A stretch of DNA of 60,255 nt, counting the filler. It is 4 parts of 4 records of this genome, joined end to end, with 100 filler letters (N's around TTAATTAATTAA, not from the genome) between each part and the next. Parts side by side here need not be neighbours in the genome. Positions count along the whole stretch, not along the records: positions 35,739 to 53,067 come from SRR31156797_10919; 3 more parts are not named here. The stretch is one strand, 5' to 3'. A program made the translations under genes and the position numbers. A model generated the notes under the pieces. That model was not told the origin of the DNA, searched no databases, and saw only the letters and a list, made by a program, of their open reading frames with translations. Every line of letters begins with the position of its first letter. Positions within the stretch are counted from its first letter, which is position 1. Positions 38,230 to 54,954 of the stretch are shown in pieces.

Positions 38230-38337
38230 ATTGAAAAAAGATTTATTAAATAGATAGAGAATAAAACATAAAATAGGAAAATTCTATTTTATGCCTATCG
38301 TACTTTTTTGTATTTATAATCCACTAGACTAATAACA

Positions 38338-39888
38338 TCATTTATGTATATTTTTGGGTGGATTAAACTTAAACAATAACTTCTTTGTAGTTATGATACA
38401 AGGAATAGCTAAAACTATCAAACATATAAGATATAAAAATGCATTGCTATAGGTTAAGACTGACACTTGTGCATTAATAGCCTTTGAAATAATAGTGAGA
38501 GTATTTACCTCAGAGATATTATCAATATTCATTTTATTAGCGTATGCATTTAACCAATTTGCTACATTTGTACTGTTTTGTGTTACATGACTTGAGATGA
38601 TATTTAGGTTTGTTGCTGTGTCATCTTTTATAAGAGTTGTCAAAACTGCAATACTTATATTACCTCCTAGTTGTCTTGTTGTACTAAATACTCCTATCCC
38701 ATAAGGTATAAGTTTTTTGGGTAGATTATTTATAGCTATTAAAGTCAAAGACAAAAATAAAAGCCCAACAGATAATCCTCTTAAAAGAACAGGAAAGAGA
38801 AGTTCATCTATTCCTGTATTTATATTTGATTTTGAGAAAAAATACATAGAAACACAAAATCCAAATAATCCAAAAGCAATAGTCTTAAAAGGTGGCACAC
38901 CTAAAACTTCAACTATAAATGCTGTAAAAAATACACTAAGAATAAACATAAACCCACTAAAAAAAAGTAGAGAACCATGCTCTTCAAGAGTTAAGCCTAA
39001 GACACTTACTCCAAAGTTGTTGATAACTGTTGTACTACCAAAAAGTGCCGCTCCTGCAGCTAGTGATACAACTATCCCAAAACTAAAGAAGTTGATTTTG
39101 AAGATATTTGTATTTATAATTGTGTTTGATTTTAAGATAGTTCTTAAAATAAAAATCACTAAAAACACAAGAGCAAATACAGTAAAAAAAGCTATATTAA
39201 AATCTTCAAACCAATTGTATCTATTTCCTCTGCTTAGAATAAAAACAAAAGGGAAAACAAAAAAAGCAAAAACAATTAATCCTACAAAATCTATCTTTCT
39301 TACTTCTGGAAGTTCAAAACTGTTTTCATCAATTATTGTAAGAATAATAAGAGAAATCAAACCTATAGGAACAGTAGTAAGAAATATAAATTCCCAAGAA
39401 TAGTTATCTAGCATATATCCGTTATATCCTATCAAAAATGTTGCAGGAGCAATAACAGCTCCAAGGGCAAAAAATGCTTGAATAAAAGGTTGATATTTTT
39501 TAGGAAAGTTTTGAAATAAAAAGCTTTGAGAACTAAGAAGTAAAATTCCACCACTATAACCTTGAATAATACTGTAAATATATTGGATATTTAGGTTTGT
39601 AGTATTTGCACTAAGATAACAACTACAAATAAGAATCAGTACAGAGGCTTTCAAAACTCTTAAGATATTGTATCTTTCAAGTATATATGCTCCACTCATA
39701 AATGCCATCAGTTTAAAACTAATATAAAATATTCCAATCCAAGCAAACTCATCATTTGAGGCATCTAAATTACCTTGCATATCAAAAGAACCAAAGCTTT
39801 GAATACTTGATAATAAAGAATCAACTAAACAAGCAAGGATTATTGCCACTATACTTACAGCAAAGCGTTTACTTTTTGTTAAATACAT
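38338..39888 (-). CDS. DHA2/EmrB-like MFS efflux transporter
   Basis: About 14 TM helices, SWEFIF, GNRYNWFED, RQLGG; paired with a HlyD gene. Confidence 0.85.
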   Translation of the reverse strand: MYLTKSKRFAVSIVAIILACLVDSLLSSIQSFGSFDMQGNLDASNDEFAWIGIFYISFKLMAFMSGAYILERYNILRVLKASVLILICSCYLSANTTNLNIQYIYSIIQGYSGGILLLSSQSFLFQNFPKKYQPFIQAFFALGAVIAPATFLIGYNGYMLDNYSWEFIFLTTVPIGLISLIILTIIDENSFELPEVRKIDFVGLIVFAFFVFPFVFILSRGNRYNWFEDFNIAFFTVFALVFLVIFILRTILKSNTIINTNIFKINFFSFGIVVSLAAGAALFGSTTVINNFGVSVLGLTLEEHGSLLFFSGFMFILSVFFTAFIVEVLGVPPFKTIAFGLFGFCVSMYFFSKSNINTGIDELLFPVLLRGLSVGLLFLSLTLIAINNLPKKLIPYGIGVFSTTRQLGGNISIAVLTTLIKDDTATNLNIISSHVTQNSTNVANWLNAYANKMNIDNISEVNTLTIISKAINAQVSVLTYSNAFLYLICLIVLAIPCIITTKKLLFKFNPPKNIHK

Positions 39889-39897
39889 ATAGAGTTC

Positions 39898-40911
39898 TTA
39901 TAAATGTTTATTTATAGTAACTTCTGCTGATAATCCAGGCATAAGTTTTTTATCATAAGTTTTTGAATCAAATACAATCTTTACTGGAACTCTTTGAACT
40001 ACTCTTACAAAATTTCCTGTTGCATTATCAGATGGAATCATACTAAAAGAAGCACCTGAACCAGGAGAAAAGCTCTCAACAGTTCCTAAAAGAGTTTTTT
40101 GTTTTAATCCATCAATTGAAACATCAACTTTATCACCAAGTTTTATTTCTGATATTTGAGTTTCTTTGAAGTTTGCAACTAACCAAATGTTTTTTATATC
40201 TACAAGGCTTAATAAGCTTGTACCTTTGTTTACATATTTACCAACTTGAACCTGTCTATTTGCTACAACTCCGTCAAATGCAGCTATAATTTTTGTATCA
40301 TTTAAATCAATTTTCGCAAGTTCTTTTTGTGCAATAGCTTGCTCAAGTTGAAACTCTACAGTCTCTTTATTTGTTAGGTATAGATTTAATCTTTTGTTTT
40401 CTATATCTAGTTTATTCTTTTTTGCCATCACATTAAAATCTGCTTGGTTTTTTTCATTTTGAATTACATCAAAGTCTTGTTTACTAATGGCATTTGATTT
40501 TTTTAATCTTTTTAGTCTTTGATAGTTTAGTTCAACTAATTTTTGTTCTGATATTGCTGAGTTATAGTTTGCTTGAGCTTCTGCTATAGTACTTTTTTGC
40601 ATATATATTTGTTCTTCTAGATTTTTTATATTTGATTTTATAGCTTTTACATTTGCTTTTTCTAGTTCTAATTTTAGTTTATAATCACTATTTTCTATTG
40701 TAAATAATACATCACCTTTTTTTACTTTTTGATTGTCTTTTATAAATACTTTATTTACATATCCTGAAACTTTAGGTGCGATTGAGACTATATCTGCTTT
40801 TGTATATGCATTGTCAGTTGTTACTATATTTGAGTATTTGTCATATATTGCAAAGCAAAATATAAACAAACAAGCCATTAAAATTGATACTATCAATTTC
40901 TTTTTATTCAT
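39898..40911 (-). CDS. EmrA/HlyD membrane fusion protein
   Basis: TTDNAY, PKVSGYV, ANFKETQ, NATGNFVRVVQRVPVKI. Confidence 0.92.
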   Translation of the reverse strand: MNKKKLIVSILMACLFIFCFAIYDKYSNIVTTDNAYTKADIVSIAPKVSGYVNKVFIKDNQKVKKGDVLFTIENSDYKLKLELEKANVKAIKSNIKNLEEQIYMQKSTIAEAQANYNSAISEQKLVELNYQRLKRLKKSNAISKQDFDVIQNEKNQADFNVMAKKNKLDIENKRLNLYLTNKETVEFQLEQAIAQKELAKIDLNDTKIIAAFDGVVANRQVQVGKYVNKGTSLLSLVDIKNIWLVANFKETQISEIKLGDKVDVSIDGLKQKTLLGTVESFSPGSGASFSMIPSDNATGNFVRVVQRVPVKIVFDSKTYDKKLMPGLSAEVTINKHL

Positions 40912-40924
40912 TAACTTTCCTTTT

Positions 40925-40942
40925 TGGTAATTAGTGTTACCA
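40925..40942. promoter_or_regulatory. Putative TetR operator
   Basis: Inverted repeat TGGTAA-N6-TTACCA between divergent emrA-like and tetR genes. Confidence 0.5.
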
Positions 40943-40999
40943 TAATTTTTGCTATAATAACTAAATTCAATAATTAAAGTCAAATCAATAGGAGAATCA

Positions 41000-41605
41000 A
41001 TGTCAAAAGATAAGCTAGAAAAAAGAAACTATATTATTAGTTCTGCTGCAAAGTTGTTTTTTGAAAAAGGTTTTTCTACTACAAGTATAAATGACATCAT
41101 AAAAGTTACCGGTGGTTCAAAAAGGGAAATTTACAGTGAATTTGGAAGTAAGTTAGGACTTTTTGAGGAGATTGTTACTATTTACACAAACAAAAACTTA
41201 GATAGATTAAATGTCTCGACTTTTGATAAAAATGATTTAGAAACATCACTTAAAGATTTTGGAGTTAAACTTGTACACTCTTTTTTTAATCCTGAAGTTT
41301 TCGGCTTGTATAGCTTGATGTTTAAAGAAGCAAAAGCTTTTCCTGAACTTGCTGCAAAATTTTATAACAGTGGTCCTCTTTTTGTTACTATGAAATTATC
41401 AGAACTTCTACAAAAATATGTAGATAAAGGGGAACTAAAAGATATCTCTACAAGTTATAATTTAGCATATATTTTTGTAAGTTTATTAAGGGATAAGATA
41501 CAAACAATAGTGATGCTTAACTCTTATGAAAACCTTGATTTATCTCAAATAGAAGCTGAAGTTGATTTAGCTATTGAAGTTTTTTTATACGGAGTTAAAA
41601 AATAG
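41000..41605 (+). CDS. TetR/AcrR-family regulator
   Basis: LFFEKGFSTTSINDI..TGGSKREIYSEFGSK HTH. Confidence 0.92.
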   Translation: MSKDKLEKRNYIISSAAKLFFEKGFSTTSINDIIKVTGGSKREIYSEFGSKLGLFEEIVTIYTNKNLDRLNVSTFDKNDLETSLKDFGVKLVHSFFNPEVFGLYSLMFKEAKAFPELAAKFYNSGPLFVTMKLSELLQKYVDKGELKDISTSYNLAYIFVSLLRDKIQTIVMLNSYENLDLSQIEAEVDLAIEVFLYGVKK

Positions 41606-41654
41606 TTATAAAGACTTAAAAACTTAACAGCAATTTTTTATTATACTTGCATTT

Positions 41655-42188
41655 ATGATTATATTAGATTTTGAAACAAACACAATGAATCCCCAAGATG
41701 TTATAGAAGCTGCTGCTGTAAAGTTAGAGTTTGTAGATGGGGATTATAAAGTTACTGATAAGTTCCATAGATATTATTTATCTAGATATCCTGTAAATCC
41801 TTACTCTTATGAAGTTCATAGACTAACTCCTGAAAAAATTATTGCTCACAGAGATGGTGCAAGTTATAGTTCGTACTTCAATGAAGATGAAGAGTTTATT
41901 GAGTTCTGTAGTGGTGCAAAAACTTTGATTGCCCACAATATAAACTTTGAGCTTAGACACTTGGATAAGCTTGTAAGGTTTGAGAAGCACTTTTGTACTA
42001 TGAAAGAGAACAAAAACATAGTAAAAGCTTTAAACAAAAATGGAAATATAAAAAACCCAAAACTAGATGAAACTTGTATCTTTTATGGGATAGATTTTGA
42101 CCCACTTTCTTATCATAGTGCCACTTATGATGTAAGTAAAACATACGAAATACTTAAATGTATGGATAAAAAAATACAAAAAATATAA
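41655..42188 (+). CDS. DEDDh 3'-5' exonuclease
   Basis: ILDFET, AHNINFE, HSATYD. Confidence 0.85.
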   Translation: MIILDFETNTMNPQDVIEAAAVKLEFVDGDYKVTDKFHRYYLSRYPVNPYSYEVHRLTPEKIIAHRDGASYSSYFNEDEEFIEFCSGAKTLIAHNINFELRHLDKLVRFEKHFCTMKENKNIVKALNKNGNIKNPKLDETCIFYGIDFDPLSYHSATYDVSKTYEILKCMDKKIQKI

Positions 42189-42269
42189 ATATTTTGTGAT
42201 TTTTTCAATAGATCAAATTGTCTTTTTTTTGTCTCATTTTATGGTTTCTTAGGTTCATTCGTAATATAA

Positions 42270-44555
42270 TTGACTAATGACTCAAGAAAGGTTACTTTGC
42301 AAAAAGATTACTTAATTAATAGATTATTTTTATTATCACTTTTTTTAATCTTAGAATTTATTCTTTTGTATACAGTTGAAAGATATTATGATAATGAACA
42401 AAAAAAAGTCTTAGAGCAAAATTTGATAGATACAAAAAATCAATTTGAAACTATAAATAAAACTCTTGATAATCTTGCCAATGCTTCATTTAAAGGATTT
42501 ATCGATAGAGAAGAAGTAAAAAAAGCTTTTGCCAATAGAGATAGAGATAAATTATTTGACTTATTAGAAATCAACTACACTTATCTAAAATCTTTTGGAT
42601 TTAAACAAGTACATTTCCATCTGCCAAATAGACACTCTTTTTTAAGAATGCATAAACCAGAAAAATCAGGTGATGATTTAACATCATTTAGATATAGCGT
42701 TGATTATACAAATGAATACCATAAATCAATAAAGGGTTTTGAAACAGGCAGGGTTCTTCCTGGGATAAGAAATGTTTATCCAATATTTTATAAAGATAAA
42801 TATATTGGAAGTGTTGAGATGTCTTTTAGTATAGAAAAATTTATAAAAGAAATAGAAAAAGTTTATAATGTTTATACTCATTTTTTAATAGAAAAAGATA
42901 TGTTTGATAAAACAGTGTTTGCAGAAGATAAAAAATTTTATAAACAAAGTATTGAAAATAAAAAATATATTGAATTAAAAAGGGAAGGTGTAAATAGTTT
43001 TTTTAAAGAGATAACTTTTGATAAAGAATTATTAGGATTTATAGATAAAGAGTTATCAATAAAAAAACAATTTAACTTTGATATTCAGATAAATAAAGAT
43101 TCTAAAATAGAAGATGAACATAAACATATCATAGTAACTTTTTTACCTGTTGTAAATATAAAAGGTGACAATGTAATGTTTTTTGTTTTTTACAAAGAAA
43201 GTAAAAACTTAAAAATTATAGAAAGCCATAGAGAAAGTAAAAAGATTATTTTTTCAATAATGCTTTTTGGTACATTTGTCCTTTTATATTTATTAATGAG
43301 AAACAATGAAATCACTTTAAAATCAAAAGAGTTTATAGAAAAAGAGAAAACAAAGTATAAAGATTTGATGAGTTTAGCCACAGATGGTATTCATATTTTG
43401 GATAAAAATGGGAATATATATGAAGTAAACACTACTTTTCAAGATATGCTAGGTTACACAACTGATGAGATAAAAACTTTAAATGTAAAGGATTTTGATG
43501 TTTATTTACCTCAAGATAGTTTAATTGATAAGATTGAAGAATTGATTAAATCAGCACAGGCTTTTAATACAAAGCATCAAAAAAAAGATGGAAGTATAAT
43601 AGAAGTTCAAATAAATGCAAAAGGTTTAGAAATCAACGGAGAAACTTATCTTTATGCATCATCAAGAGATATTACAGAAGAAAGAAATGCTTATAGAAAG
43701 TTACAAAAATTTATCGATTTACAAGATAATATTGTAGTTGTAACAGATTTAAATAAATTGTCATTTGCAAATAAAAGGTTTATTGAATTTACAGGTTTTA
43801 ATGATATTGAGCAATTTAATGATAGAGTTGAAAGTATTTGTGATCTTTTTGTTGAAAATGACAGATTTTTTCATCAAGGTAAACTTTTAGAAAAAGAAAA
43901 TTGGATTGATTATCTAGAGAGAATTCCACACTCAAAAAGAATAGTGGGAATGTTGAAATATGACTATAATCTTCATGCCTTTGCTGTTACTGTAAATAGA
44001 TTTGAAGATGACTATTTTATATTGACTTTTACGAATATCACACAAACAATGTTAAATCATATAAAATTAGAAGATAAAACTATACATGACAAAATGACAA
44101 ACGCCTTCAATAGAGAATATTTTGAACAAAATTCAAAAAGTATTTTAAAAGAGTTTACTAAAGATAATAGTTCTTTAGGTATAGCCTTTTTAGATATTGA
44201 CCATTTTAAATCAGTAAATGATACTTTTGGACATGATATTGGGGATGAAGTTTTGATTCACTTTGTTAAAACAATTCAAAAGTTTTCAAGAGAAAACGAT
44301 ATTTTAATTAGATGGGGAGGAGAAGAGTTTATCTTTTTACTTAAAATCAATTCAAATGAAAGTCTGACTAAAGCCTTAGAACATATAAGAAAAGTAATAG
44401 AGTTAGAAAATTTCAATATTGTAGGACATATTACTTGCTCTATTGGTGGATCTTTATATATTGAAGGGGAATCTCTTTCAACAACAATAAAAAGAGCAGA
44501 TGCAGCAGTTTATAAAGCAAAAAACAATGGTAGAAATAGGGTAGAGATAGATTAA
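42270..44555 (+). CDS. Membrane sensor diguanylate cyclase (Cache-like, PAS, GGDEF)
   Basis: Two TM helices, SFLRMHKP, PAS domain, DIDHFKSVNDTFGH, RWGGEEF. Confidence 0.9.
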   Translation: MTNDSRKVTLQKDYLINRLFLLSLFLILEFILLYTVERYYDNEQKKVLEQNLIDTKNQFETINKTLDNLANASFKGFIDREEVKKAFANRDRDKLFDLLEINYTYLKSFGFKQVHFHLPNRHSFLRMHKPEKSGDDLTSFRYSVDYTNEYHKSIKGFETGRVLPGIRNVYPIFYKDKYIGSVEMSFSIEKFIKEIEKVYNVYTHFLIEKDMFDKTVFAEDKKFYKQSIENKKYIELKREGVNSFFKEITFDKELLGFIDKELSIKKQFNFDIQINKDSKIEDEHKHIIVTFLPVVNIKGDNVMFFVFYKESKNLKIIESHRESKKIIFSIMLFGTFVLLYLLMRNNEITLKSKEFIEKEKTKYKDLMSLATDGIHILDKNGNIYEVNTTFQDMLGYTTDEIKTLNVKDFDVYLPQDSLIDKIEELIKSAQAFNTKHQKKDGSIIEVQINAKGLEINGETYLYASSRDITEERNAYRKLQKFIDLQDNIVVVTDLNKLSFANKRFIEFTGFNDIEQFNDRVESICDLFVENDRFFHQGKLLEKENWIDYLERIPHSKRIVGMLKYDYNLHAFAVTVNRFEDDYFILTFTNITQTMLNHIKLEDKTIHDKMTNAFNREYFEQNSKSILKEFTKDNSSLGIAFLDIDHFKSVNDTFGHDIGDEVLIHFVKTIQKFSRENDILIRWGGEEFIFLLKINSNESLTKALEHIRKVIELENFNIVGHITCSIGGSLYIEGESLSTTIKRADAAVYKAKNNGRNRVEID

Positions 44556-44556
44556 T

Positions 44557-44661
44557 CTATCCTTTCAACCCTTTTCTCATACTCTCCACAAGTTCATCGC
44601 TAGCTTTTGTACTTGTAAAATATTCGAATGCTAAAACACCTTGATAAAGAAGCATATCATC
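44557..44661 (-). pseudogene. aroE: Orphan 3' fragment resembling the shikimate dehydrogenase C-terminus; probable att junction
   Basis: DDMLLYQGVLAFEYF resembles the AroE (G)xxMLxxQxxxxF motif; upstream sequence is non-coding and leads into the integrase. Confidence 0.65.
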
Positions 44662-44785
44662 TATACTATTAAGTTTACATAAAAATACAAACAAATACAA
44701 AAGCCTATAAAATAGGGATTTATCTAAGCTTTTTTTAGTTATAATTTTACAAATAAATACATTTAAAAACATATTTCTACACTTT

Positions 44786-44828
44786 TAGGGTAGCTATAAG
44801 GTAGCTAAAATATCTTATTAGGGTAGCA
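44786..44828 (+). repeat. Putative integrase arm-type binding sites
   Basis: TAGGGTAGCT (44786), TAAGGTAGCT (44797), TAGGGTAGCA (44819) direct repeats. Confidence 0.6.
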
Positions 44829-44846
44829 TAAAAAGTAGGTAAAATT

Positions 44847-45959
44847 ATGGCACAAAGAATAAAATCTAAAAAGTACCCGGGTGTTTATTACAGAGAGCTA
44901 AGTAATGGTGATAAATCTTATGATATAACTTATAAAGTTGATAATAAAAAAGTTTGGCTAAAAATAGGCTTACATAGTGAGGGTATAAGAGAAGCATTCT
45001 GTCATCAAAAAAGAAATGAAATAGTGACTAAACAAAGATTGGGAGAAGAACTACCTCTTGTAGCATCTAAAAAGACTTCTAAGACACTATTAGAACTTGC
45101 AAAAGAGTTTTATGATTATAAAGAGCTTTATAATAAACAAAATAAAAAAACTAGATCAAGAGTAGAAAATAGATTAAATGATCACTTTATTGGTAATAAG
45201 GCTGTAAAAATAATAACTAAATCTGATATGGAAAATTTCCAAATAGAGATACAAAAAGATTTAATGCCTGCAACAGTTAATTTTATAATGCAACAAGTTG
45301 GTGGTATATTTATTTGGGCAATAGAAAATGAAGTACTTGATAAAAATCCTTGTAAAGGAATAAAAAAGCTAAAAGTAAATAACTCAAGACTTAGATATCT
45401 TGAAATAGATGAAATAAAAATGCTTACACGAACTCTTAAAAATGATAAGATAGCATACTACTTTGTGATGTTAAGTTTAGCAACGGGAGGAAGACTACAA
45501 ACGATATGTCATATAAAACCATCTGATATAAAAGAAAATGGAACAATAAAACTATATGACTTTAAAAATAGTAGTGAATACTATGGATTTATAAATGAAG
45601 AACTTAGAAATGAAGTAGAGCAGTTTATATCAGATCAAAGTATAAAAAAAGATGACTTTCTATTTAAAACTACAAAAAATCAAAATTATACAAATCAATA
45701 CTATTATAGAAAACTGCAACCTATATTTGATATTCTTTTCAATCCAGAAGGAATAGAATCACTAAACAAAGTAACTATACATACTTTAAGACATACATTT
45801 GCAAGTCAACTAGCTATAAATGAAACACCAATACTTACAATCAAAAAACTTATGAATCATAATGATATAAATGCAACTATGAGATATGCAAAATTGAGTA
45901 AGAGTAGTGGGGAAAAGCATGTAGATGCATTTATAAAATTTTTTTTAAATAGTAAATAA
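44847..45959 (+). CDS. Tyrosine recombinase/integrase
   Basis: TGGR (Arg), HTLRHTFAS (HxxR), LMNH, MRY (Tyr); N-terminal arm-binding-like YPGVYYR. Confidence 0.95.
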   Translation: MAQRIKSKKYPGVYYRELSNGDKSYDITYKVDNKKVWLKIGLHSEGIREAFCHQKRNEIVTKQRLGEELPLVASKKTSKTLLELAKEFYDYKELYNKQNKKTRSRVENRLNDHFIGNKAVKIITKSDMENFQIEIQKDLMPATVNFIMQQVGGIFIWAIENEVLDKNPCKGIKKLKVNNSRLRYLEIDEIKMLTRTLKNDKIAYYFVMLSLATGGRLQTICHIKPSDIKENGTIKLYDFKNSSEYYGFINEELRNEVEQFISDQSIKKDDFLFKTTKNQNYTNQYYYRKLQPIFDILFNPEGIESLNKVTIHTLRHTFASQLAINETPILTIKKLMNHNDINATMRYAKLSKSSGEKHVDAFIKFFLNSK

Positions 45960-46016
45960 TTTGCTAATAATTTATCTTTTTGTATAATATCTAATAATAT
46001 TATTAAAGGTTTTATA

Positions 46017-48851
46017 ATGAATTCTCATATTAATATATTGAAAAAATCAAATGATAAAAATAAATTAACAATTTTTGTTGGTTCTGGAATCTCTGCAAGT
46101 TCTGATTTACCACTTTGGAGTGATTTAATTAAAATGATTAAAAGTGAGTTAGGAATAAATGATAAAGAAAATGATTACTTAAAAATTGCGCAATTATATT
46201 ATTTGTCATGTGGAGAAACAGTTTATTATCAGAGAATTAGAGAGTTTTTCCCTGATAATATAGAACCAACAATAATTCAAAAATTAATTTTTGAATTAAA
46301 ACCTGCAAATATTATTACTACAAATTGGGACATTCTACTTGAAAAAACTGCTAGAGAGAATGGATATATATATGATGTAATATCAAAGGATGAACATTTA
46401 GTGCAATCTGAACTAGAAAATCATATTATTAAAATGCACGGAGATTTTAGAGATAATAATATTGTTTTTAAGGAAGATGACTATATTAATTATAAACATA
46501 ATTTTCCATTAATTGAGAATTTTATTAAAAGTCTTTTATCAACAAATACAATATTATTTTTAGGGTATTCTTATAGTGATATAAATTTAAAACAAATTTC
46601 GAAATGGATACAAAACAATTCTAAGTCCATGCCACCAATGTTTTTAGTTGTTTTTAAGGAAGATAAAAATCAAAGTAAGTATTTAGAAAATTTTGGAATA
46701 AAAACAATTATTATTGAAAAAGAAGATAAAAAATTTGGATTAGATACTTATTCTAATAAAATAGCTACATTTTTAACAGAACTTAATTTAGATATAGATT
46801 GTTTCAATAATACGGATAAAATGTCTGATTTGGAAGTTATAAATTTTATTTATAATAAATTAAAACCATTAAATGAATTAGAAGGGATTCTATTAAATCA
46901 ATTACAAAAGACATTAACAAATTGTGGTTTTAGTTTTATTCCTTTTAATTCTGGCAATTATGTATTTTTAGAGTTTTATGATGTGTTAGCAACATATGAT
47001 ATTGATCAAAATAATAGAAAAATATATAATAAATTTAGAGATATTTTAAATAATTTTAGTGATGAATATTCACAAGAAGTTAAAGAAAAGATCTTCTTTA
47101 TTATTTCAGTTTTTTACAAAACCAATATAAATGGGTATATTAAAGTGTCAGATAAAAACATTGTCAGAAGTGCAAGACAAAATGAAGAATTTGCATTTTT
47201 TAAAATACCAATAAAGACAGATCAATATAAAAAACATTTATTTAATTTTAACTTTAAGGATTTTGAAGTAAAAGAAGATGATATTAAAAGATTAAGAGAA
47301 AAAACTTTTTTTTATTATCAAAGGTATGAATATCATAAAGCTTTTAATTTGAATGAAAAGGTTATAAAGTTGTGTCTTAAACAACAAAATTATATACAAT
47401 TATTCTTAGCTATGTTTAATCATAATATTCTTTTAAATAAATTACAAGATCCTTGGTATTCAGAAGATACTAACGAAAAAGACAAGTATCAAATAGCTGA
47501 AGATAATATGCACTTAAAAGGTTATAATCTTGATGAAAAATTTTATGAGCTTCCTAAAACTATTCAGAAAGTTTTATCTGAAATAAAACCTTTCTTAAGT
47601 TACGACTATTTGTATAGATTCTCTTCTGAAGTTGATGATGAACTTGATAAAAAAAATAAACAAAAGAAAGCAATTGAAAATAATAGTGGCATGAGTTGGG
47701 AAACTAATGTAACAAGAAATTATTCTAAACATAAAAATCTAATTTGTTTTGTATTAAATAACTTAATGATGATAGAACGAATATATGAATTTAATAATGT
47801 TAATAAAAAATTAATTAGAATTAGTCTAATACGGCAAATGCAAAAAGAATACTTTACATTAGATAAATTAGAGCTTTTTGTAGTTATTAAATATATATCT
47901 TATAAAGATTTGTTTGAACTTATAAAAGACTTTAAAGATTTTAAATTAAAAATAGATATGAAAACTTTAAATTGGCTTACAATTAAAATTTTTTCTAATA
48001 TTGTTAAATTATATATTGAGAATAAAAGTTTATATTCGCATTTTAATGACGAAATAAAAAAAGTATTATATTTATCTAGTATGAATTCATTATCAAACAA
48101 ACAATTAGGCGTTATGTTAAAACAAATAAAAATATTAATTAATTGTAGAAAAATTGACTTAGATATTTATGAGTTTATCAATAGGCTTGTTGATAGTCAA
48201 AAGAATATTAAAAAAGAAGATTTGATAGAAATTATTGAAATGATGATAGATAAAATTATTTGTAATAAAGGTAATATATGGGACTATGAAGTAATAGAAA
48301 AAAATTATTTCTGGAGTCCATTTAAGCATTTAGGTAGTCAAGATATTTTATATGAAAATATAGATTTAATTAAAAAATTTTTACAAGAGTTGAATGGATT
48401 TAATAACAAACAAAAAATACAATTATCAAAAGGCTTTTTGTTTAACTTATATCTTATTTCAAATGAAGAGATTAAAGAACTTATTAAAGATTTTATACTG
48501 AGCATAAATCTAGATGATATATGTGAGCCAAATCTTAAAAATTTAGATATTAATAATACTCAAGATTTTGATTTTGATGGACTGATTAATTATGGACTAA
48601 AAATATCATTCAAACTTTTTTTAGCAATTCAGAAATTTATTGAAATTGATGATCAACTTATAAAAGAAATTAAAAAATATCCAGAAATGGATAAAGATAA
48701 TTTGTACTTTTTAGGAGAGGTTACTGGACAAATTAGATATTTAGTTGAGCAAATGGATATAGAAGAGTTAGAAGATCTATTAAAAGTGCTATTAAAAACT
48801 ATTGATGATGTTAATGCAAAACAAAAAGATATTAATAGAATGATAATTTAA
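46017..48851 (+). CDS. SIR2_2-domain large protein, DSR2-like putative anti-phage NADase
   Basis: FVGSGIS, ITTNWD, KMHG, EDDYINY..NFPLI, LFLGYSYSD; long helical C-terminus; upstream TTGCTA-N16-TATAAT. Confidence 0.82.
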   Translation: MNSHINILKKSNDKNKLTIFVGSGISASSDLPLWSDLIKMIKSELGINDKENDYLKIAQLYYLSCGETVYYQRIREFFPDNIEPTIIQKLIFELKPANIITTNWDILLEKTARENGYIYDVISKDEHLVQSELENHIIKMHGDFRDNNIVFKEDDYINYKHNFPLIENFIKSLLSTNTILFLGYSYSDINLKQISKWIQNNSKSMPPMFLVVFKEDKNQSKYLENFGIKTIIIEKEDKKFGLDTYSNKIATFLTELNLDIDCFNNTDKMSDLEVINFIYNKLKPLNELEGILLNQLQKTLTNCGFSFIPFNSGNYVFLEFYDVLATYDIDQNNRKIYNKFRDILNNFSDEYSQEVKEKIFFIISVFYKTNINGYIKVSDKNIVRSARQNEEFAFFKIPIKTDQYKKHLFNFNFKDFEVKEDDIKRLREKTFFYYQRYEYHKAFNLNEKVIKLCLKQQNYIQLFLAMFNHNILLNKLQDPWYSEDTNEKDKYQIAEDNMHLKGYNLDEKFYELPKTIQKVLSEIKPFLSYDYLYRFSSEVDDELDKKNKQKKAIENNSGMSWETNVTRNYSKHKNLICFVLNNLMMIERIYEFNNVNKKLIRISLIRQMQKEYFTLDKLELFVVIKYISYKDLFELIKDFKDFKLKIDMKTLNWLTIKIFSNIVKLYIENKSLYSHFNDEIKKVLYLSSMNSLSNKQLGVMLKQIKILINCRKIDLDIYEFINRLVDSQKNIKKEDLIEIIEMMIDKIICNKGNIWDYEVIEKNYFWSPFKHLGSQDILYENIDLIKKFLQELNGFNNKQKIQLSKGFLFNLYLISNEEIKELIKDFILSINLDDICEPNLKNLDINNTQDFDFDGLINYGLKISFKLFLAIQKFIEIDDQLIKEIKKYPEMDKDNLYFLGEVTGQIRYLVEQMDIEELEDLLKVLLKTIDDVNAKQKDINRMII

Positions 48852-48872
48852 AATATTCATAAAGGTTAAAAT

Positions 48873-50204
48873 ATGAAAGAATTTGAAGAGACTATTAAAC
48901 AATTATTTGAATATGTACATGAATATGCATTTAATAATCTTGAATTAACGTTAGAAAATCCACCTCAAAATTGGACAACTGAAGAAAGTGAAAAATTTAC
49001 TGAATACGTACATATTGGCTTCAAAAAGGGGCAAGAGTTAGTCTTAGCTAACATAATAAAATATGAAAGTGATTTATCTGAATTAAACAGTAATCTAAAA
49101 CTAAGCCGGAAAGAAAAAAATAAAAATTTAGAAAATACAACTCAAGAGACTATTAGTTTAATTAATTATAAAATTAGTATATTAAGAATATTTATGGATT
49201 TTATAGCTTGGCAATTTTTAGGACAACAATATTATAAAGTTAGAAGATTTTATGATATGAATAAGAAATATAATTCAAGACCAACCTTGTCAACATCAAA
49301 TATTGAATCTGTCAAAAGTGCTATTGATTATTATCATTCTCTTAGTCCTTTAAATTTTGCTTTAATTTCAGATTTGACATCCTTTATTGATATTGGAGAT
49401 ATTTTATTAATGGATAATTACCAAGTAGTACCAATAGAAATAAAAGAGGGACAAAAAAATAAAGAGATATTTGATTTTTTATTTAAGCAAAAAATACCTT
49501 CAAATCCTGAAGTAATAGATGATAAGTTTATAAAACAATCAAAAAGAGTTTTAAATCAAGTAAAAAGAGGTCAGTTATTATCCAATGTACTTAAAGATGA
49601 AAAAGGTGTAGATCCATTTACAGAGCTAAAAACTGAAGTTAATAGTGAAGCTTTTGAATTAGAAACTTATACTTCAGAATTTGAAAAAATGATTGATAAT
49701 TTAAAAGATAAAAATTATTCCTATAATATTATTGAAGATGTAATTTCTATTGGAATCTATCAAAAAGATTTTATAACAGCAGGTGAGACATTAATTCCAT
49801 ATTTAAATAAAGAAATGTTTGGTAAAGATTACCCAGTTTTTAATTTTAGAAGTAAAATAAATATACCAATATCTGAACCTATCTTTTATCTAGGGTTATC
49901 CAAAGAAACCATTTTTGATATTTTATTTGGAAGAATAAATATTATAATATCAATCAATATTGATAAGTTCATTGAACTATGTAAATTAAATGGTTTAGAT
50001 GCAGGTTATTTATCAAAAAAAGAAACAATGAATAGAAAGAAAAAAGGTGAACTTCCACTTTTTGAATTTGAAAAACAAAATATTCAAATAGATGGTGCTC
50101 TTATTCATGGATTAATTAATAGAATGATTTTTGACCTTGTAAAGCCATCATCAATTATAAAGTATTTAAAAATACAACTAAAAGAAAGTAATGAAAATAC
50201 TTAA
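48873..50204 (+). CDS. Hypothetical protein with PD-(D/E)xK-like nuclease motif
   Basis: SDLTSFIDIGDILL...PIEIKEG; starts 21 nt after the Sir2 gene with an AAGG RBS. Confidence 0.6.
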   Translation: MKEFEETIKQLFEYVHEYAFNNLELTLENPPQNWTTEESEKFTEYVHIGFKKGQELVLANIIKYESDLSELNSNLKLSRKEKNKNLENTTQETISLINYKISILRIFMDFIAWQFLGQQYYKVRRFYDMNKKYNSRPTLSTSNIESVKSAIDYYHSLSPLNFALISDLTSFIDIGDILLMDNYQVVPIEIKEGQKNKEIFDFLFKQKIPSNPEVIDDKFIKQSKRVLNQVKRGQLLSNVLKDEKGVDPFTELKTEVNSEAFELETYTSEFEKMIDNLKDKNYSYNIIEDVISIGIYQKDFITAGETLIPYLNKEMFGKDYPVFNFRSKINIPISEPIFYLGLSKETIFDILFGRINIIISINIDKFIELCKLNGLDAGYLSKKETMNRKKKGELPLFEFEKQNIQIDGALIHGLINRMIFDLVKPSSIIKYLKIQLKESNENT

Positions 50205-50228
50205 CTTATCCACCTTTTTTGTCTCAGT

Positions 50229-50800
50229 TATCTTCACTCTTTTTATTTAACTTCCTTTTGCCTTTAGATATGTCAAAATGATATGGTAGGGAATGGCTCT
50301 TGAGTGAAGATACCTTGCCCTTGTAACAATTTGAATTTAACAATTTGTTACAGGACAAGTTAAGTTTATTTTACAAATGACACGGCTTTTGCAGGACTTT
50401 CGTTTCGATTTAAGTAGATCATTGTTCAGCTCTTAATCTACAACATAATTACACTAGACGGCTCCCCTTATCTAATAACCTATATATTTAAAAAATCTAG
50501 TAAAAGTATTATTACTTCTTTAAAAACCTCTGTTTTATATATTAACTAGTAAACATATAGGAATGTTCTTGCTACTGCTTTCGCAGATGAGCGGGCATCT
50601 CCAAGGTGAATCGTACCACATACACTTCCTCACACCTTGCTGATTTGGTCTCTTGTTTGGCTATGATTATTTTCGGTAAGTTCATTCTCACCTTATGCAA
50701 GTTTTTATTTTTTATTGTAAGATTTCGCTTACTGTACAGTCCTTACATTCTACCGCTTATATAGTTTTTATGAACATTGCTTTATCCTCAACACTTAAGT
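50229..50800 (-). ncRNA. Candidate large structured RNA
   Basis: No ORF of 60 aa or more; many nested stems; GAAA tetraloop and G-U wobbles only on the minus strand. Confidence 0.5.
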
Positions 50801-50831
50801 TGATTTTTTTTAAGAAATCTGGATTAAAAGC

Positions 50832-50860
50832 TTGAAATTTATTTAGATATTTGTTAAGAT
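50832..50860 (+). promoter_or_regulatory. Putative counter-transcript promoter
   Basis: TTGAAA-N17-TAAGAT directly upstream of the 50873-50913 hairpin. Confidence 0.45.
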
Positions 50861-50934
50861 GTTATACTTTTTTAGCAATTCTTTAGTGGCCAAACTAACA
50901 AGAAGAATTGCTAGAACCTCCTTGTATTGAGATA

Positions 50935-51186
50935 TTAATAGTCCACTTTTATACATTGTTTACTTTTCTCAAGTTGATAATTAACTACATTTTGAACAGG
51001 AAACATAATCCCTTTTTTTGCTTCAATGAATTCTGGACAGTCAATTGCTGCTTTTCTTCTTTCATCAAGAGTTCTTGTACTTATTCCTAAAGCTTCAGCA
51101 CAATCTTTTGATCTAAGCATGACTCCATACTTGGAGATTAAAGCTTGTAGCATTGATGTAAAAATGATTTCATGTGAAATATTCAA
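50935..51186 (-). CDS. Excisionase/AlpA-like winged-helix protein
   Basis: LRSKDCAEALGISTRTLDERR...P HTH_17-like pattern; TTG start. Confidence 0.75.
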   Translation of the reverse strand: MNISHEIIFTSMLQALISKYGVMLRSKDCAEALGISTRTLDERRKAAIDCPEFIEAKKGIMFPVQNVVNYQLEKSKQCIKVDY

Positions 51187-51385
51187 AACATTACCTTATA
51201 CATAAAAATGAAATTAAGTTCTGAAATTGAAAGTAAGTCGGCAAACTCATAATTCAATTATAAATACTTAGAGCTCAACAATATCAGGCGATATTGTTAT
51301 CTGAGCCTTATTCGCTTGCCGAGCTCTAAATATTTATGGATTAGAGAAGTTTAATAAATTAGAAAAATTAAAAATAGGGGATTTT

Positions 51386-52126
51386 TTATAAATTTTTATC
51401 TAATTCAATTTGGGGCTTGTCTATAAGCTGTTTAAAAAAAGATTTTTTGTCTTTTTCTTGAAGAGTTCGTTTAATATCAGAGTTGTATTTATATACAGTA
51501 GATACAATATTCTTATTAATAGTTTTTGTGATTTGAGTGTTTGAATATTTTGCAATAAAGTGATAATAAGCTATATAAATATAATATTCTACTTTTTCAA
51601 TTAGTTCATCATAAGATTTAACTGTATTCAAAAGTTTTGGATAAAAAACTACTTCTTTTTGTATTTTCTCATCTATATTTTTACTGTTACCATTAATAAG
51701 TTGCGTACAAAAGAATTTAGTCATAAATGTAGGAATTATAGGGTACCGTTCTATTTCATTTTTTAATTCATCGTCAAAACCTTCTTTTCTTGTTGAAAGA
51801 AGCACTTCTTCTATATTTGTACCTGTTAAATTATTATCTAAAATTAGTTGTATAATAATTCTAAATTCTTCAAAGGTTAGTAAAATCTTTTTCAATTCAG
51901 AGTGCTTGATTGAGATAGGTTTATTAAAATATGAAATATAATCAGTATGATAATAAAAGTTAGATTTTAAAAGGTTTGTTAAAAAGTTAACTTTTTTCTG
52001 ATGTTCTAAGCTATCCCAATATAAATTAATAGCAAGTAGATTTTTTTCATTTTGAAATATTTCATGTTCATCTAATTCACATAATAAAAAATTTTGTAAA
52101 ATAGGCTCTATATCTTCAAACATCAA
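51386..52126 (-). CDS. Hypothetical protein of the element
   Basis: 246-aa ORF with GGAG RBS; no motif recognised. Confidence 0.7.
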   Translation of the reverse strand: MMFEDIEPILQNFLLCELDEHEIFQNEKNLLAINLYWDSLEHQKKVNFLTNLLKSNFYYHTDYISYFNKPISIKHSELKKILLTFEEFRIIIQLILDNNLTGTNIEEVLLSTRKEGFDDELKNEIERYPIIPTFMTKFFCTQLINGNSKNIDEKIQKEVVFYPKLLNTVKSYDELIEKVEYYIYIAYYHFIAKYSNTQITKTINKNIVSTVYKYNSDIKRTLQEKDKKSFFKQLIDKPQIELDKNL

Positions 52127-52273
52127 TATTCTCCAAAGTTTTGATAAAAATCATAACTTATAATGTTTTTTATTGCAATCGTCATATAGCGATATTTTGT
52201 TGCAATATGCAATAATTTAAAAATGATTTAAAAAAATAGTGTAAAATTGATTTATTAAATCAAAGGGGTCAAA

Positions 52274-52537
52274 ATGCAAGAAGAAGTATCAATAAAAGAA
52301 GCATCAAATTTTATCTCAAGTTGGGTTTCTGATTATAAAAAAGAACAAAAACAAGACAAATATCAATCTATGCTAGATAAATTTAGTAAAGAAGACTTAG
52401 TAAAAAACTATGAAGAGTTATTATATGAAAAATTTGCACTTGAAGATAAAATAAATTTTTTAAGAGATGAAAATAGAATTTTAAAAGTAGAGAATGAGCG
52501 ACTAAAAGTAAGTTTGTTAGTTTCAAATAAAGAATAA
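52274..52537 (+). CDS. Hypothetical coiled-coil protein
   Basis: 87-aa ORF, AAGGGG RBS, heptad pattern. Confidence 0.7.
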   Translation: MQEEVSIKEASNFISSWVSDYKKEQKQDKYQSMLDKFSKEDLVKNYEELLYEKFALEDKINFLRDENRILKVENERLKVSLLVSNKE

Positions 52538-52548
52538 AAGGATAAAAA

Positions 52549-52722
52549 ATGATTTTAAACATTGATATATTAAAAGAGATATCTTCTGATAAGATGAAAG
52601 ATATTGAAGAAGCAAATAGAATGATTATTGAAATTCAAAATGCTGATTTACCATCACAAGATAAAGAACTAAAAACTAAAGTTTTAAAAGACATTATTAG
52701 AAATATAAAAGAGATTTTTTAA
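52549..52722 (+). CDS. Small hypothetical protein (57 aa, below the ORF-track cutoff)
   Basis: AAGGA RBS; MILNIDILKEISSDK...RNIKEIF; followed by hairpin 52705-52734. Confidence 0.65.
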   Translation: MILNIDILKEISSDKMKDIEEANRMIIEIQNADLPSQDKELKTKVLKDIIRNIKEIF

Positions 52723-52950
52723 TATCTCTTTTATGTTAACCGAGATTGTTCAGAGTTTTGTATCAATAACTGATAGTTTTTAGAATTCTAAAATAGTTAA
52801 TCTTACTTAGTCAAGTTTGTTCCAAAAAGTACAGGTTATTGAACTAATCTTCAGATATAGAAACTTTATCATTTCTTTATCCTCTCAATTAGTTGTCTTA
52901 ATTTAGTGCACATATGCTATATTTATAAAATCTTATTTAAGGTTAAAATT

Positions 52951-53067
52951 ATGAATATTTCAAGATTAGACCATTTGGTTTTAACAGTTAAAGATATTGA
53001 TAAAACAGTAGAGTTTTATGAAAAATTAGGAATGAAGAAAGAGATTTTTAAAGAAACAAGAGTTGCT
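52951..53067 (+). CDS. VOC/glyoxalase-family protein, 3'-truncated
   Basis: RLDHLVLTVKDI..TVEFY..LGM. Confidence 0.85.
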
Positions 53068-53167
53068 NNNNNNNNNNNNNNNNNNNNNNNNNNNNNNNNN
53101 NNNNNNNNNNNTTAATTAATTAANNNNNNNNNNNNNNNNNNNNNNNNNNNNNNNNNNNNNNNNNNNN
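53068..53167. other. Artificial contig linker
   Basis: N44-TTAATTAATTAA-N44. Confidence 0.99.
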
Positions 53168-53565: not shown

Positions 53566-53754
53566 GCAACTCTGCAAAAAGAATATTGTCATTTAAGTAG
53601 AAGCTTTTACGGATTAGCTTTCATTGTAGCCTGAAACGTGCTCAATGTTCAATTTTTGTTTCAGGCTGCTTTTTTGTATTTTTTTAATTTCAGTAATACT
53701 TTTTTGCAACCCCTTGTTTTTTGGATTGTCATTAAAGAAAATAACTCAACAAAA

Positions 53755-54954
53755 ATGAAACAGACACTTATACTTTTATTATCATTTTTTATATTGGATC
53801 AAAGTCTGGCCCAAAGTACTGGTACGCTAAAAACGGCTCCTGCCCAGATAACCCTAATCACTCCACTGGGAACAAACGGTAACAATTCGCTCAAAACCAT
53901 TAATTATTTTTCTTTAAATATAATTGGAGGTTACCATGCAGGATTAAACGGGGCCGAATTTGGTGGTTGTATAAACATGAACCGCGATTATATGGCCGGG
54001 TTTCAGTTTGCCGGTATTGCTAATTATACCGGAGCAGACGCGACTGGTGTTCAATTCTCGGGAATAATAAATTTGAACCTTGGTAAAGCGAGTATTTTCC
54101 AGTTTGCCGGTATCTTAAATGCCAATATAGGTTCAACACAGGGAGTTCAGGCTGCTGGTATTGCCAACTATACGATGGGCGACTCAAAAGTCATACAATT
54201 AGGAGGTATCGGTAATTATGCAGAAACAATATCAGGAGGTCAGATTGGTGGTATTACCAACTTTAATCTAAAAAAAATTAATGGAACTCAGCTGGCTGGT
54301 ATTGCCAACTTTTCTCAAAATATTGAAGGAGTACAAGTGGCAGGAATTTTAAATGTCACAGAATATTTAAAAGGAGTACAAGTAGCAGGAATTGTTAACA
54401 TGGCCAAAAATGTTGACGGGGTGCAGATTGGCGTTTTAAACATTGCCGACACGATAAAAAGCGGGACTCCCATTGGTATTGTTAGTTTTGTTCGCAACGG
54501 TTTTCGTGAGTTTGAAGTTGGTATTAGCGAGGGATTAAACACCTATGCTTCTTTTAAGATCGGGGTAGACAAATTCTACAATATCTTTAGTATCGGTACA
54601 CAATACCTCGGTGATTTTCGCTGGGGAGTGGGCTACGGTTTAGGAACACACTTGGTAAATGAAAACGACTTAAAAGTAAACCTGGAAGCTATGTCGTATC
54701 ACATTAACGAAGGGAGCGAATGGACCGATGCCTACAACGGACTGCAACAACTGAAATTAACTTTTGCCGGTGGTAAAAACGAAAAAATAAAGCTGTTTGC
54801 GGGTCCAAGTTTAAACCTGATGATTTCGAAATACAAGAAAAAAAATGGAAGTATAGGCTCTGATTTCCCTCCGTACCACTTTTACAGGGATAAAGGAAAC
54901 AAAACAGATCTAAAATTTTGGGCAGGATTTACTGCAGGTATAAAAATACAATAG
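53755..54954 (+). CDS. Exported Gly-rich repeat protein (GxQxAGxxN repeats, LA_2272-like) with C-terminal barrel-like region
   Basis: Signal peptide and many tandem G-x-Q-x-A/G-G-I-x-N units. Confidence 0.7.
   Translation: MKQTLILLLSFFILDQSLAQSTGTLKTAPAQITLITPLGTNGNNSLKTINYFSLNIIGGYHAGLNGAEFGGCINMNRDYMAGFQFAGIANYTGADATGVQFSGIINLNLGKASIFQFAGILNANIGSTQGVQAAGIANYTMGDSKVIQLGGIGNYAETISGGQIGGITNFNLKKINGTQLAGIANFSQNIEGVQVAGILNVTEYLKGVQVAGIVNMAKNVDGVQIGVLNIADTIKSGTPIGIVSFVRNGFREFEVGISEGLNTYASFKIGVDKFYNIFSIGTQYLGDFRWGVGYGLGTHLVNENDLKVNLEAMSYHINEGSEWTDAYNGLQQLKLTFAGGKNEKIKLFAGPSLNLMISKYKKKNGSIGSDFPPYHFYRDKGNKTDLKFWAGFTAGIKIQ

Follow-up and report, generated by a model that had tools for sequence, protein, structure and literature searches.

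A conserved, strand-specifically base-paired non-coding module, probably a large structured RNA, in integrating mobile elements of the Arcobacteraceae

What is carried by a stretch of some 700 nucleotides (nt) that separates the cargo genes of a small integrating element from its AlpA/Xis-like gene and that contains no long open reading frame (ORF)? The question is raised by positions 50205 to 50934 of a DNA of 60,255 nt (hereafter the window, meaning the whole of the stretch that was analysed), which consists of four pieces joined end to end; the contig that matters here runs from 35739 to 53067 and has a GC content of about 25%. Within it the gap is limited on one side by the stop codon of a 443-codon gene on the plus strand (50204) and on the other by that of an 83-codon gene on the minus strand (50935). 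An earlier note on this DNA had described the gap as free of long ORFs and richer in G and C than the genes flanking it, and both statements hold: the GC content is 31.8% across 50205–50933 (31–36.5% per 200-nt segment) as against about 22–24% in the flanks and fractions of 0.16–0.27 in the adjoining genes, each of the six reading frames of 50205–50934 is interrupted by 13 to 22 stops, and the longest open stretch amounts to 57 codons. The same note had proposed, from stems found by eye, a multi-branched RNA read from the minus strand, perhaps a replication or primer module working without a Rep protein, or else a large RNA of some unclassified kind. As described below, the gap holds a conserved, sharply bounded, base-paired, strand-specific and non-coding module (here named NC; 50205–50933, minus strand, about 729 nt) that is linked to integrating mobile elements, and which we regard, with moderate confidence, as an independent, highly structured non-coding RNA of the element, about 0.73 kb in length.

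Folding of the window's own sequence gives −153 kcal/mol for the minus strand (z = −3.7) and −152.8 kcal/mol for the plus strand (z = −2.3), each judged against 20 shuffles and weak when taken alone; since this is only modestly beyond what shuffled sequences achieve, it is comparative data that must decide on structure. These are available within one bacterial family. Using blastn, matches to NC of at least 450 nt and 71–95% identity were found in 17 of 184 Arcobacteraceae species genomes, while 26 metagenome contigs were picked up by means of a 26-mer that is invariant in its core, 11 of them holding full-length copies; a cultured strain, Arcobacter cryaerophilus LMG 9065, is among the carriers, with NC at about 9.4–10.2 kb of contig 7 of G005. 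The core alignment comprises 18 genome copies, to which nine distinct metagenome copies were added. Kinship among the copies inflates some of the counts that follow, and it is to guard against this that a control with slid pairing partners and a set of out-of-sample copies were used; the significance figures for NC pairs derive from slid and shuffled controls rather than from tree-aware statistics. In this alignment no codon position is favoured by the variable columns (145/157/151), and of 401 gap runs 364 have a length not divisible by three. The absence of codon periodicity, together with indels that are mostly not triplets, excludes a decayed or hidden protein gene for practical purposes, this being an outcome that the earlier note had named as fatal to its proposal.

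Pairing, by contrast with coding, has left a clear mark. From the 18 copies RNAalifold derived 117 pairs, of which 34 show at least one compensatory double change; removal of a weak terminal helix and addition of a 5′ hairpin, with one long-range contact recorded as a pseudoknot, gave a final model of 123 pairs in 21 helices, in which 97.5% of 2196 alignment cells can pair. When partners are slid by 1–3 columns this falls to 35–43%. Changes on both sides of a pair are seen for 37 pairs, as against 6–10 with slid partners and 17.9 on average with shuffled columns (none of 500 shuffles reaches 37), and the nine metagenome copies, each less than 97% identical to any other copy and unused in deriving the model, keep 94–99% of the pairs. 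The multi-branched, structured element proposed earlier is thus borne out, and covariation among homologues, whose absence would have told against it, is strong. So too is the assignment to the minus strand: on that strand there are 188 G-U cells as against 20 A-C cells, and 97.5% of cells are paired compared with 89.8% when the plus strand is read, so that the pairing fits the window's minus strand. Outside the helices, 158 of 479 unpaired columns are invariant, including the runs AGCGGUAGA, GGUACGAUU, AGAGCUG and UUAAAU, and some lineages have extra hairpins inserted into their copies; invariant unpaired runs and lineage-specific inserted hairpins are both typical of RNAs having tertiary structure.

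Read along the minus strand, the putative RNA would have its 5′ end near 50933 and its 3′ end near 50209. Close to the 5′ end lies AAGGAGG (50917–50923), which resembles a Shine-Dalgarno sequence and is present in nearly all rows (L019 lacks it), although the 18-copy alignment contains no conserved start codon after it. It is followed by the 5′ hairpin H1 (50873–50913), with the conserved apical loop GUUAGUUUGGCSACUA; helices 1 and 2 of the model are 91–96% paired, and three pairs change on both sides. Part of this loop (50889–50895) has a possible long-range or pseudoknot partner in GCCAAAY at 50655–50661, predicted by RNAalifold and 96% paired, a contact that comes without covariation proof because its bases are nearly invariant. 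H1 is followed by a less conserved stretch, rich in A and U, in which there is one small hairpin, and then by H6 (50748–42/50701–695) and H7 (50692–87/50680–75), together spanning 50675–50748; H6 is 98.4% paired, with three of its seven pairs changing on both sides, and H7 100% (four of six). The most conserved part is the central domain H8–H10 (50575–50652), which includes invariant GGUACGAUU and GGAGAUGCCCG and the hairpin CUGC-GAAA-GCAG. H9 and H10 are 100% paired, and their compensatory changes include AAGG/CCUU to ACCG/CGGU and GC to AU. Next comes the multi-branch domain H11–H18 (50414–50572; 93–100% paired), built from H12 (50567–63/50446–42), H13 (50561–50/50490–79), the inner branches H14–H16, H17 (50477–66/50461–52) and H18 (50441–34/50421–14), with compensatory changes in H12, H13, H14, H16, H17 and H18. 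The 3′ strand of H11 and the hairpin H19/H20, with its invariant loop GUUAAAUYCA, occupy 50318–50359, H20 being 99.4% paired; H21 (50230–50311; 93% paired, two of five pairs changing on both sides) closes a variable 3′ domain, and the motif ACUGAGAYAAAAAAGGUGG(A) at 50209–50228 terminates the module, similarity between loci stopping right after it.

Measured against the 18 homologues, six of the eight stems that had been picked out by eye stand. Those at 50602–08/50633–39 (126 of 126 cells paired, with compensatory changes) and 50414–19/50436–41 (108 of 108) are paired throughout; that at 50479–89/50551–61 is paired in 178 of 197 cells, that at 50229–39/50302–12, which corresponds to H21, in 166 of 196 cells over 11 pairs, and the hairpin at 50314–59, formed by helices 19 and 20, is 99–100% paired, with six of the nine pairs of its main stem changing on both sides. 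The tetraloop stem 50575–78/50583–86 is likewise sound (72 of 72 cells, with compensatory changes), but the GAAA loop to which attention had been drawn occurs in only 7 of the 18 copies. The two long-range stems fare less well: 50562–68/50772–78 pairs in 101 of 126 cells (80%) and 50568–72/50697–701 in 77 of 89 (87%), in each case with one position that pairs in only 5–7 of the 18 copies, and their bases fit better in H12, H11 and H6, where pairing is 98–99% and supported by compensatory changes.

The limits of the module are sharp. It starts just 5′ of the conserved AAGGAGG, and at the other end similarity ceases right after ...AAAAAAG(U)GUGG in all 18 copies, the DNA downstream being unrelated between loci. 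Homology extends over the full length in 12 of the 18 aligned copies, and the 5′ two-thirds are common to all 18; the 3′ domain occurs in at least three versions (in 12, three and two copies, plus one singleton), with H20, H21 and the terminal motif kept in every one. Loci reached through an alignment of AlpA-like proteins differ in this respect: in one metagenome-assembled genome NC is conserved from end to end, in a second it is conserved only down to 50413 and then has a different 3′ part, and a third lacks it. Conservation is higher in NC than in the protein-coding genes beside it; in the pair formed by the window's element and L005, it is 84% identical in nucleotide sequence, as compared with 57% for the AlpA-like protein and 78% (nucleotide) for the integrase region.

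That the module is unclassified, one of the possibilities raised earlier, is supported by cmscan against Rfam 15, which gave nothing at the gathering threshold anywhere in the window, only chance matches far short of their gathering scores (mir-549, rseX, SAM-II, CopA and others) at E ≤ 10 across 49900–51500, and only an unrelated tRNA at E ≤ 1 in eight homologous loci. These negatives take in group II intron domains, RNase P, tmRNA, OLE, GOLLD, ROOL, HEARO, ARRPOF and int-alpA, as far as these are represented in Rfam 15; ARAGORN found neither tRNA nor tmRNA. Full-text literature searches did not turn up a description of such an RNA, although supplementary listings could still contain it; a 2024 paper in Nucleic Acids Research on "50 genomes" mentions neither Arcobacter nor alpA. 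Using blastn, no similar DNA was found among 50,697 phage or 72,556 plasmid records, and the invariant 26-mer had no match in IMG/VR. Viral contigs searched with the neighbouring 246-amino-acid (aa) and AlpA-like proteins gave pattern matches and no relatives, and a 17-mer from the GC-rich core gave two chance matches in viral contigs of 58–70% GC that had no further similarity. Among 401 sampled Campylobacterales genomes blastn returned only the known Arcobacteraceae carriers and three short AT-rich matches, while a covariance model (R1) of a 246-nt core, run on 151 sampled Campylobacterota genomes, found its own source genome only. As both of these wider searches are samples, outside the Arcobacteraceae NC is best described as not found in the genomes searched.

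Within the family, NC is a backbone module of integrating elements, which are of two broad sorts: small islands with an integrase and an AlpA-like protein, and larger ones resembling integrative and conjugative elements (ICEs). The window-type arrangement, seen in five loci, consists of a gene for a 246-aa protein, a conserved folded leader (HP, described below), alpA, NC, cargo on the opposite strand, an integrase, and a displaced piece from the 3′ end of a host gene. In L039 that gene is found whole (267 codons) about 17 kb away at the other end of the island, which places NC in the interior of the island and, taken with the fragment, indicates that the element integrated into a protein-coding gene at its 3′ end and replaced the tail. 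ICE-like loci come in two kinds, one having an integrase, HP and NC, cargo and alpA followed by ParA-like, NikA-like and large uncharacterised genes, the other having NC beside a different integrase and a coupling-protein-like gene; in all four such loci NC has the same orientation as the genes that are NikA-like (or in the relaxase position) or coupling-protein-like. In three species NC lies at the edge of an island adjoining carB. The smallest arrangement is that of L048 (G174 contig 1, about 1.000–1.004 Mb), where a minimal island of roughly 3 kb, flanked by the gene for glutamate dehydrogenase and by an operon for an AcrB/HlyD pump, comprises an integrase, an inverted alpA, HP and NC, and an 84-codon ORF. 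The remnant arrangement, seen once, has NC in a small leftover of an island together with a GNAT and an AraC-type gene; in the remnant L044 no integrase is called over about 9 kb to the left or to the right. Taking the 18 loci together, AlpA-like genes are present in 10 and the main integrase cluster (c1) in eight. The gene lying just past the 3′ end of NC faces it in 13–14 of the 18 and is a different gene every time; this cargo consists mostly of defence genes, such as the SIR2-domain pair of the window, type I restriction-modification and AbiE.

Two further ideas about the position of NC were considered and rejected. It is not a chromosomal RNA gene serving as integration site, since in L039 it lies some nine genes inside an island that is bounded by the split host gene; nor is its 3′ motif duplicated as an attachment repeat, no second copy being found near 17 of the 18 loci. 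As to attachment sites, in L021 (G010) a tRNA gene at 2751–2823 shares the strand of NC and precedes it by about 640 nt at the carB-side edge, so that some NC islands may use a tRNA as attachment site.

The leader HP is located about 100–350 nt upstream of NC and is about 100–130 nt long; in the window, where nhmmer and alignment place it at 51240–51342 (minus strand), it lies between the 246-codon gene and alpA. It was detected by nhmmer in 32 of 48 sequences, namely 14 of the 18 oriented NC loci, L004 (a relative without NC) and 17 of the 26 metagenome loci; an example is that at 9388–9490 of L041. It contains an invariant 14-nt inverted repeat, AAAUAUUUAGAGCU / AGCUCUAAGUAUUU, which crosses a covarying helix (GGCAAG/CUUGCC, GACAAG/CUUGUC, GGUAGG/CCUACC), so that HP must be either a pseudoknot or, as in attenuators, a pair of alternative folds. 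The inner hairpin also covaries, while the bases of the invariant repeat do not vary and its pairing is therefore without covariation support; the palindrome is also the source of the spurious sub-threshold microRNA match in Rfam. HP could be an attenuator, an operator, an oriT or a promoter that is active as single-stranded DNA (ssDNA). Loci in which NC comes straight after HP have a promoter-like site just upstream of HP, TTTACA-17-TATACT, of which 10 of 12 positions match in L041. Type A denotes the loci where alpA immediately precedes NC in the same orientation and no terminator separates the two; among the 20 aligned rows that are not of this type, 18 retain TATATACT and 13 retain TTTACA. 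The linker of about 100 nt between HP and NC had been suspected of being a remnant of alpA, but its local alignment score is equalled or exceeded by 83 of 500 shuffles, and the idea was dropped. Relatives of NC are also present in RNA libraries: in four metatranscriptome runs from four studies (wastewater, activated sludge and plastic biofilm being the sources) contigs cover relatives of 50203–50940 with almost no flank, which is weak evidence for expression. In one run, X16, the depth is 12–91 over NC and 0–2.4 over the flanks, but because the runs were selected using the NC sequence and depth sums over strains, it is not used as a measure of expression.

That NC acts as RNA rather than as ssDNA, where its transcript starts and ends, and everything concerning its function are matters that we infer. 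An RNA is favoured because the size, the multi-junction fold, the invariant loops and the inserted hairpins resemble those of structured RNAs and not those of known ssDNA elements, and also because a promoter-like site is conserved upstream, because NC is co-oriented with transfer genes where these are present, and because its relatives occur in RNA libraries. On this reading NC would be transcribed with, or just behind, the HP leader, with alpA between them in window-type elements. The RNA would start a few bases before AAGGAGG and the strong hairpin, which might protect its 5′ end, and would fold into some 21 helices with multi-way junctions and many invariant unpaired bases before ending at the invariant ACUGAGAYAAAAAAGGUGG, where the exchangeable cargo region starts. 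STAB-SD elements are known from Bacillus, and RNase J is found in Campylobacterota, so that an AAGGAGG without a start codon, followed by a strong hairpin, would fit a stabiliser against 5′-to-3′ exonuclease. Such a stable RNA, acting together with a protein or in an assembly made of RNA only, would presumably serve the element rather than any particular cargo, and candidate roles include establishment, control of excision or transfer, and handling of the host, any one of these activities being much less probable than the general reading; a role for the element itself is favoured since NC belongs to the backbone, borders the cargo slot on its fixed side and accounts for most of a minimal island. 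More speculatively, and with distinctly less assurance, NC and HP might together represent an undescribed class of large "ornate" RNA forming the functional heart of minimal elements and performing a task that falls to proteins in other elements, such as priming or establishing incoming or excised DNA, or else forming an RNA-only particle like those of ROOL and GOLLD; in one species, the whole island consists of an integrase, AlpA, NC and one small ORF.

Several observations weigh against an independent RNA. A structure formed in ssDNA would yield the same covariation and the same G-U(T) asymmetry. The promoter scan finds no more sites than in shuffled sequence, so that only the conservation of the site counts, and there is no intrinsic terminator after NC. 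The contigs from RNA libraries come from runs picked for this very sequence, with strains summed and carry-over of DNA possible, and two of them extend 61–245 nt past the 3′ boundary. The stabiliser reading of AAGGAGG draws entirely on general background. Nor is any partner protein conserved beside NC across the 18 loci (within about 9 kb), and L004 has HP and alpA, but two small ORFs in place of NC, which implies that this backbone can do without NC. (These ORFs, 106 and 75 codons long, lie at 6264–7047 of L004 and match no family, and the backbone in which they replace NC is 93% identical; the cargo of L004, also convergent, is a LlaJI-type restriction-modification system.)

Among the alternatives, the main rival, albeit an unlikely one, is that NC is folded ssDNA of the sso, ssi or Frpo kind (a single-strand origin, priming site or ssDNA promoter) which acts upon conjugative entry, HP being an oriT or a Frpo-like hairpin promoter and the cargo corresponding to leading-region genes. 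Its attraction is that some carriers of NC are ICE-like and have NikA-like, coupling-protein-like and ParA-like genes and others are small islands that such elements could mobilise, that a strand-specific structure tolerating G-T pairs is what one would expect there too, and that the covarying helix of HP always holds a −35-like hexamer (TTGGCA, TTGACA, TTGGTA or TCGGCA). Against it speaks the geometry: an oriT is usually placed upstream of nikA, and, given that NC runs in the same direction as the mobilisation or transfer genes in four cases out of four, that arrangement would make the strand complementary to the NC sense the one that is transferred. In addition, the known elements each consist of one long hairpin, unlike a 730-nt multi-junction fold in which 158 unpaired columns are invariant; relatives of NC appear in RNA libraries; the conserved upstream site resembles a double-stranded promoter; and the cargo consists for the most part of defence genes (SIR2, restriction-modification of type I and of the LlaJI type, AbiE) and not of recognised anti-defence genes. 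Part of the literature on plasmid leading regions (PMC11541004) describes a rule of gene orientation that reflects reading from the transferred strand, and the cargo facing NC in 13–14 of 18 loci would conform to it if the NC-sense strand were transferred; the search for Frpo and ssi in that paper took in regions of 50–350 bp only. An sso is reported for ICEBs1 (PMC4595007).

The replication or primer module of the earlier note, in which a pre-primer like ColE1 RNA II would end at the A-run and an excised, Rep-less circle would replicate, now seems improbable. It is true that no rep, primase or relaxase gene is recognisable in the window's element using Pfam, PHROGs, NCBIfam and PADLOC, just as had been stated, that the minimal island of L048 offers little besides its integrase, alpA, HP and NC and one small ORF, that some NC elements have a ParA-like gene and no recognised Rep, and that the invariant 3′ end, an A6 run followed by a G-rich stretch, is loosely like the RNase H site of ColE1. 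Beyond the missing Rep gene there is nothing positive, and a good deal is adverse: no Rfam replication RNA matches even at E ≤ 10, the plasmid, phage and IMG/VR collections (the last searched by the 26-mer) contain no similar DNA, the DNA past the 3′ end, where synthesis would have to start, is unrelated between loci, L004 keeps its backbone without NC, and NC belongs as well to ICE-like elements, where ParA-like, NikA-like and coupling-protein-like genes are present, and to the remnant L044. We would give similarly little credence to a purely cis-acting role within the alpA transcript, as a long structured 3′ untranslated region or as an insulator against convergent transcription. The type-A arrangement, the convergent cargo in 13–14 of the 18 loci, the absence of a terminator after NC and the two RNA-library contigs that pass its 3′ end would all suit it; but NC is without a preceding alpA in 13 of the 18, following mostly after HP and the linker of about 100 nt, alpA is on the opposite strand in L048, and 700 nt with invariant loops and junctions far exceeds the needs of a terminator or stabiliser. 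In islands of the P4 and PICMI type the place downstream of alpA is often taken by a gene for a primase or for replication, and NC occupies that very place, from which one might imagine a decayed protein gene or a functionless, recombination-prone conserved spacer. This is very improbable in view of the 13–22 stops per frame, the lack of codon periodicity with indels mostly not multiples of three, a conservation exceeding that of neighbouring genes, and compensatory changes in 37 pairs. In PMC10803314 the large non-coding regions of PICMI were put down to small ORFs or pseudogenes and left without further analysis.

If NC is indeed an RNA, it is closest in kind to GOLLD and ROOL. Like NC, these are several hundred nt long, with many covarying helices and conserved unpaired bases, and they occur on mobile DNA, not in the core genome, with no conserved protein gene adjacent. 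Unlike them, NC has no match of sequence or modelled structure in Rfam, is restricted to one family in the genomes sampled, and lies in integrase/AlpA islands and ICE-like elements and not in the phage collections searched, whereas GOLLD and ROOL are often on prophages. Both have been reported (10.1101/2024.12.08.627333) to form RNA-only multimers as seen by cryo-electron microscopy. ColE1 RNA II and ARRPOF share with NC a long folded RNA, a mobile replicon-like element and an A-run near the 3′ end, as well as, for the window's element, the want of a recognisable Rep protein; NC differs from them in having no match in Rfam or in the 72,556 plasmid records and in the lack of conservation of the DNA downstream, and the antisense-regulator arrangement of ColE1 RNA II was not seen. 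A group II intron or HYER-type ribozyme finds no more support, there being no Intron_gpII or group-II-D1D4 match (E ≤ 10 in the window, E ≤ 1 in eight homologues); the internal GUGUG lies inside H9, and the boundary motifs differ from 5′ GUGYG and 3′ AY. The int-alpA RNA motif is a small structured RNA between integrase and alpA in enterobacterial satellites. It resembles NC in being a structured non-coding element of the integrase-alpA neighbourhood beside an exchangeable cargo slot, but NC is several times larger, lies downstream of alpA and faces the cargo rather than leading it, and neither int-alpA nor any other Rfam family appeared at E ≤ 10 across 49900–51500 apart from the chance matches.

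The ssDNA elements sso, Frpo and ssi (PMC11541004, PMC4595007) are like NC in being strand-specific folded non-coding modules on conjugative or mobilisable DNA, with neighbouring genes oriented in a way that fits reading from one strand; they are simple hairpins of up to a few hundred nt, whereas NC is a 730-nt multi-junction fold that is co-oriented with transfer genes and occurs in RNA libraries. The PICMI (PMC10803314) resemble the NC island in possessing an integrase, an AlpA-like protein, a few genes of no known function and a sizeable non-coding region. A primase and a site next to fis define them, with the co-location of int, alpA and a primase (DUF3987 / DUF5906) serving as their mark, and they live in Vibrionaceae as satellites of phages; no primase domain is present in any ORF of the window's element, there is no evidence of a helper phage for NC elements, and some of the elements that carry NC are ICE-like.

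Few bacterial non-coding RNAs combine a length above some 500 nt with rich conserved structure. Those that are understood, such as the ribosomal RNAs, RNase P, self-splicing introns and guide-RNA scaffolds, carry out sophisticated chemistry or scaffolding, while OLE, GOLLD and ROOL are still open problems. To these NC adds a new, well-supported candidate with clear boundaries, and with dozens of compensatory changes already aligned and cultured carriers to hand its function is directly testable. As the fixed edge of the slot where Arcobacter elements exchange defence systems, it is also a handy landmark for such cargo. More generally, the large non-coding regions of small integrase/AlpA islands are usually ignored, and NC suggests that they deserve closer attention.

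Turning to the other genes of the window's element, the AlpA/Xis-like small DNA-binding protein is encoded directly upstream of NC at 50935–51186 (minus strand; 83 codons counted from TTG, a later ATG being possible). It has no Pfam match above threshold; its 38 homologues, every named one of which is from Arcobacteraceae, give an alignment (A1) with invariant RTLDERRK. Upstream of HP, at 51386–52126 (minus strand), is the gene for the 246-aa backbone protein (cluster c5), which is common to four type-A loci and has no family match in Pfam, PHROGs, NCBIfam or PADLOC. On the other side of NC two cargo genes occupy 46017–50204 of the plus strand. The nearer, convergent with NC and with its stop codon abutting the 3′ end of the module, encodes 443 aa (48873–50204), matches no family and is absent from the homologous loci; the farther (46017–48851) encodes a 944-aa protein with a SIR2 domain and a ThsA-like N-terminus (Pfam SIR2_2, 8e-25), which the ThsA models of PADLOC match at 1e-32 over residues 5–225 only. 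In this protein the SIR2_2/ThsA similarity is confined to the first 230 or so residues, and the remaining 700 or so match nothing. No PADLOC system model covers the pair, which may be an unclassified SIR2-based defence system. The tyrosine integrase of the element lies at 44847–45959 (plus strand; Pfam Phage_integrase, 3.6e-22; PHROG 1, 4.5e-56), and beside it, at 44560–44775 (minus strand), is the C-terminal fragment of the host gene, 71 codons long.

Regarding the remainder of the window, its pieces are joined at 15346–15445, 35639–35738 and 53068–53167 by runs of N around a six-frame stop linker, TTAATTAATTAA. The GC content is about 33–36% in the first two pieces, about 25% in the contig with NC and about 40% after 53168, and given these differences the pieces may come from more than one organism. 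In the last of them, within an ORF at 53638–54954, positions 53998–54400 contain five 28-nt repeats resembling GGAGTTCAGGCTGCTGGTATTGCCAACT, at spacings that are multiples of three, which suggests a repeat protein, with a weak match to the VC2662 family.

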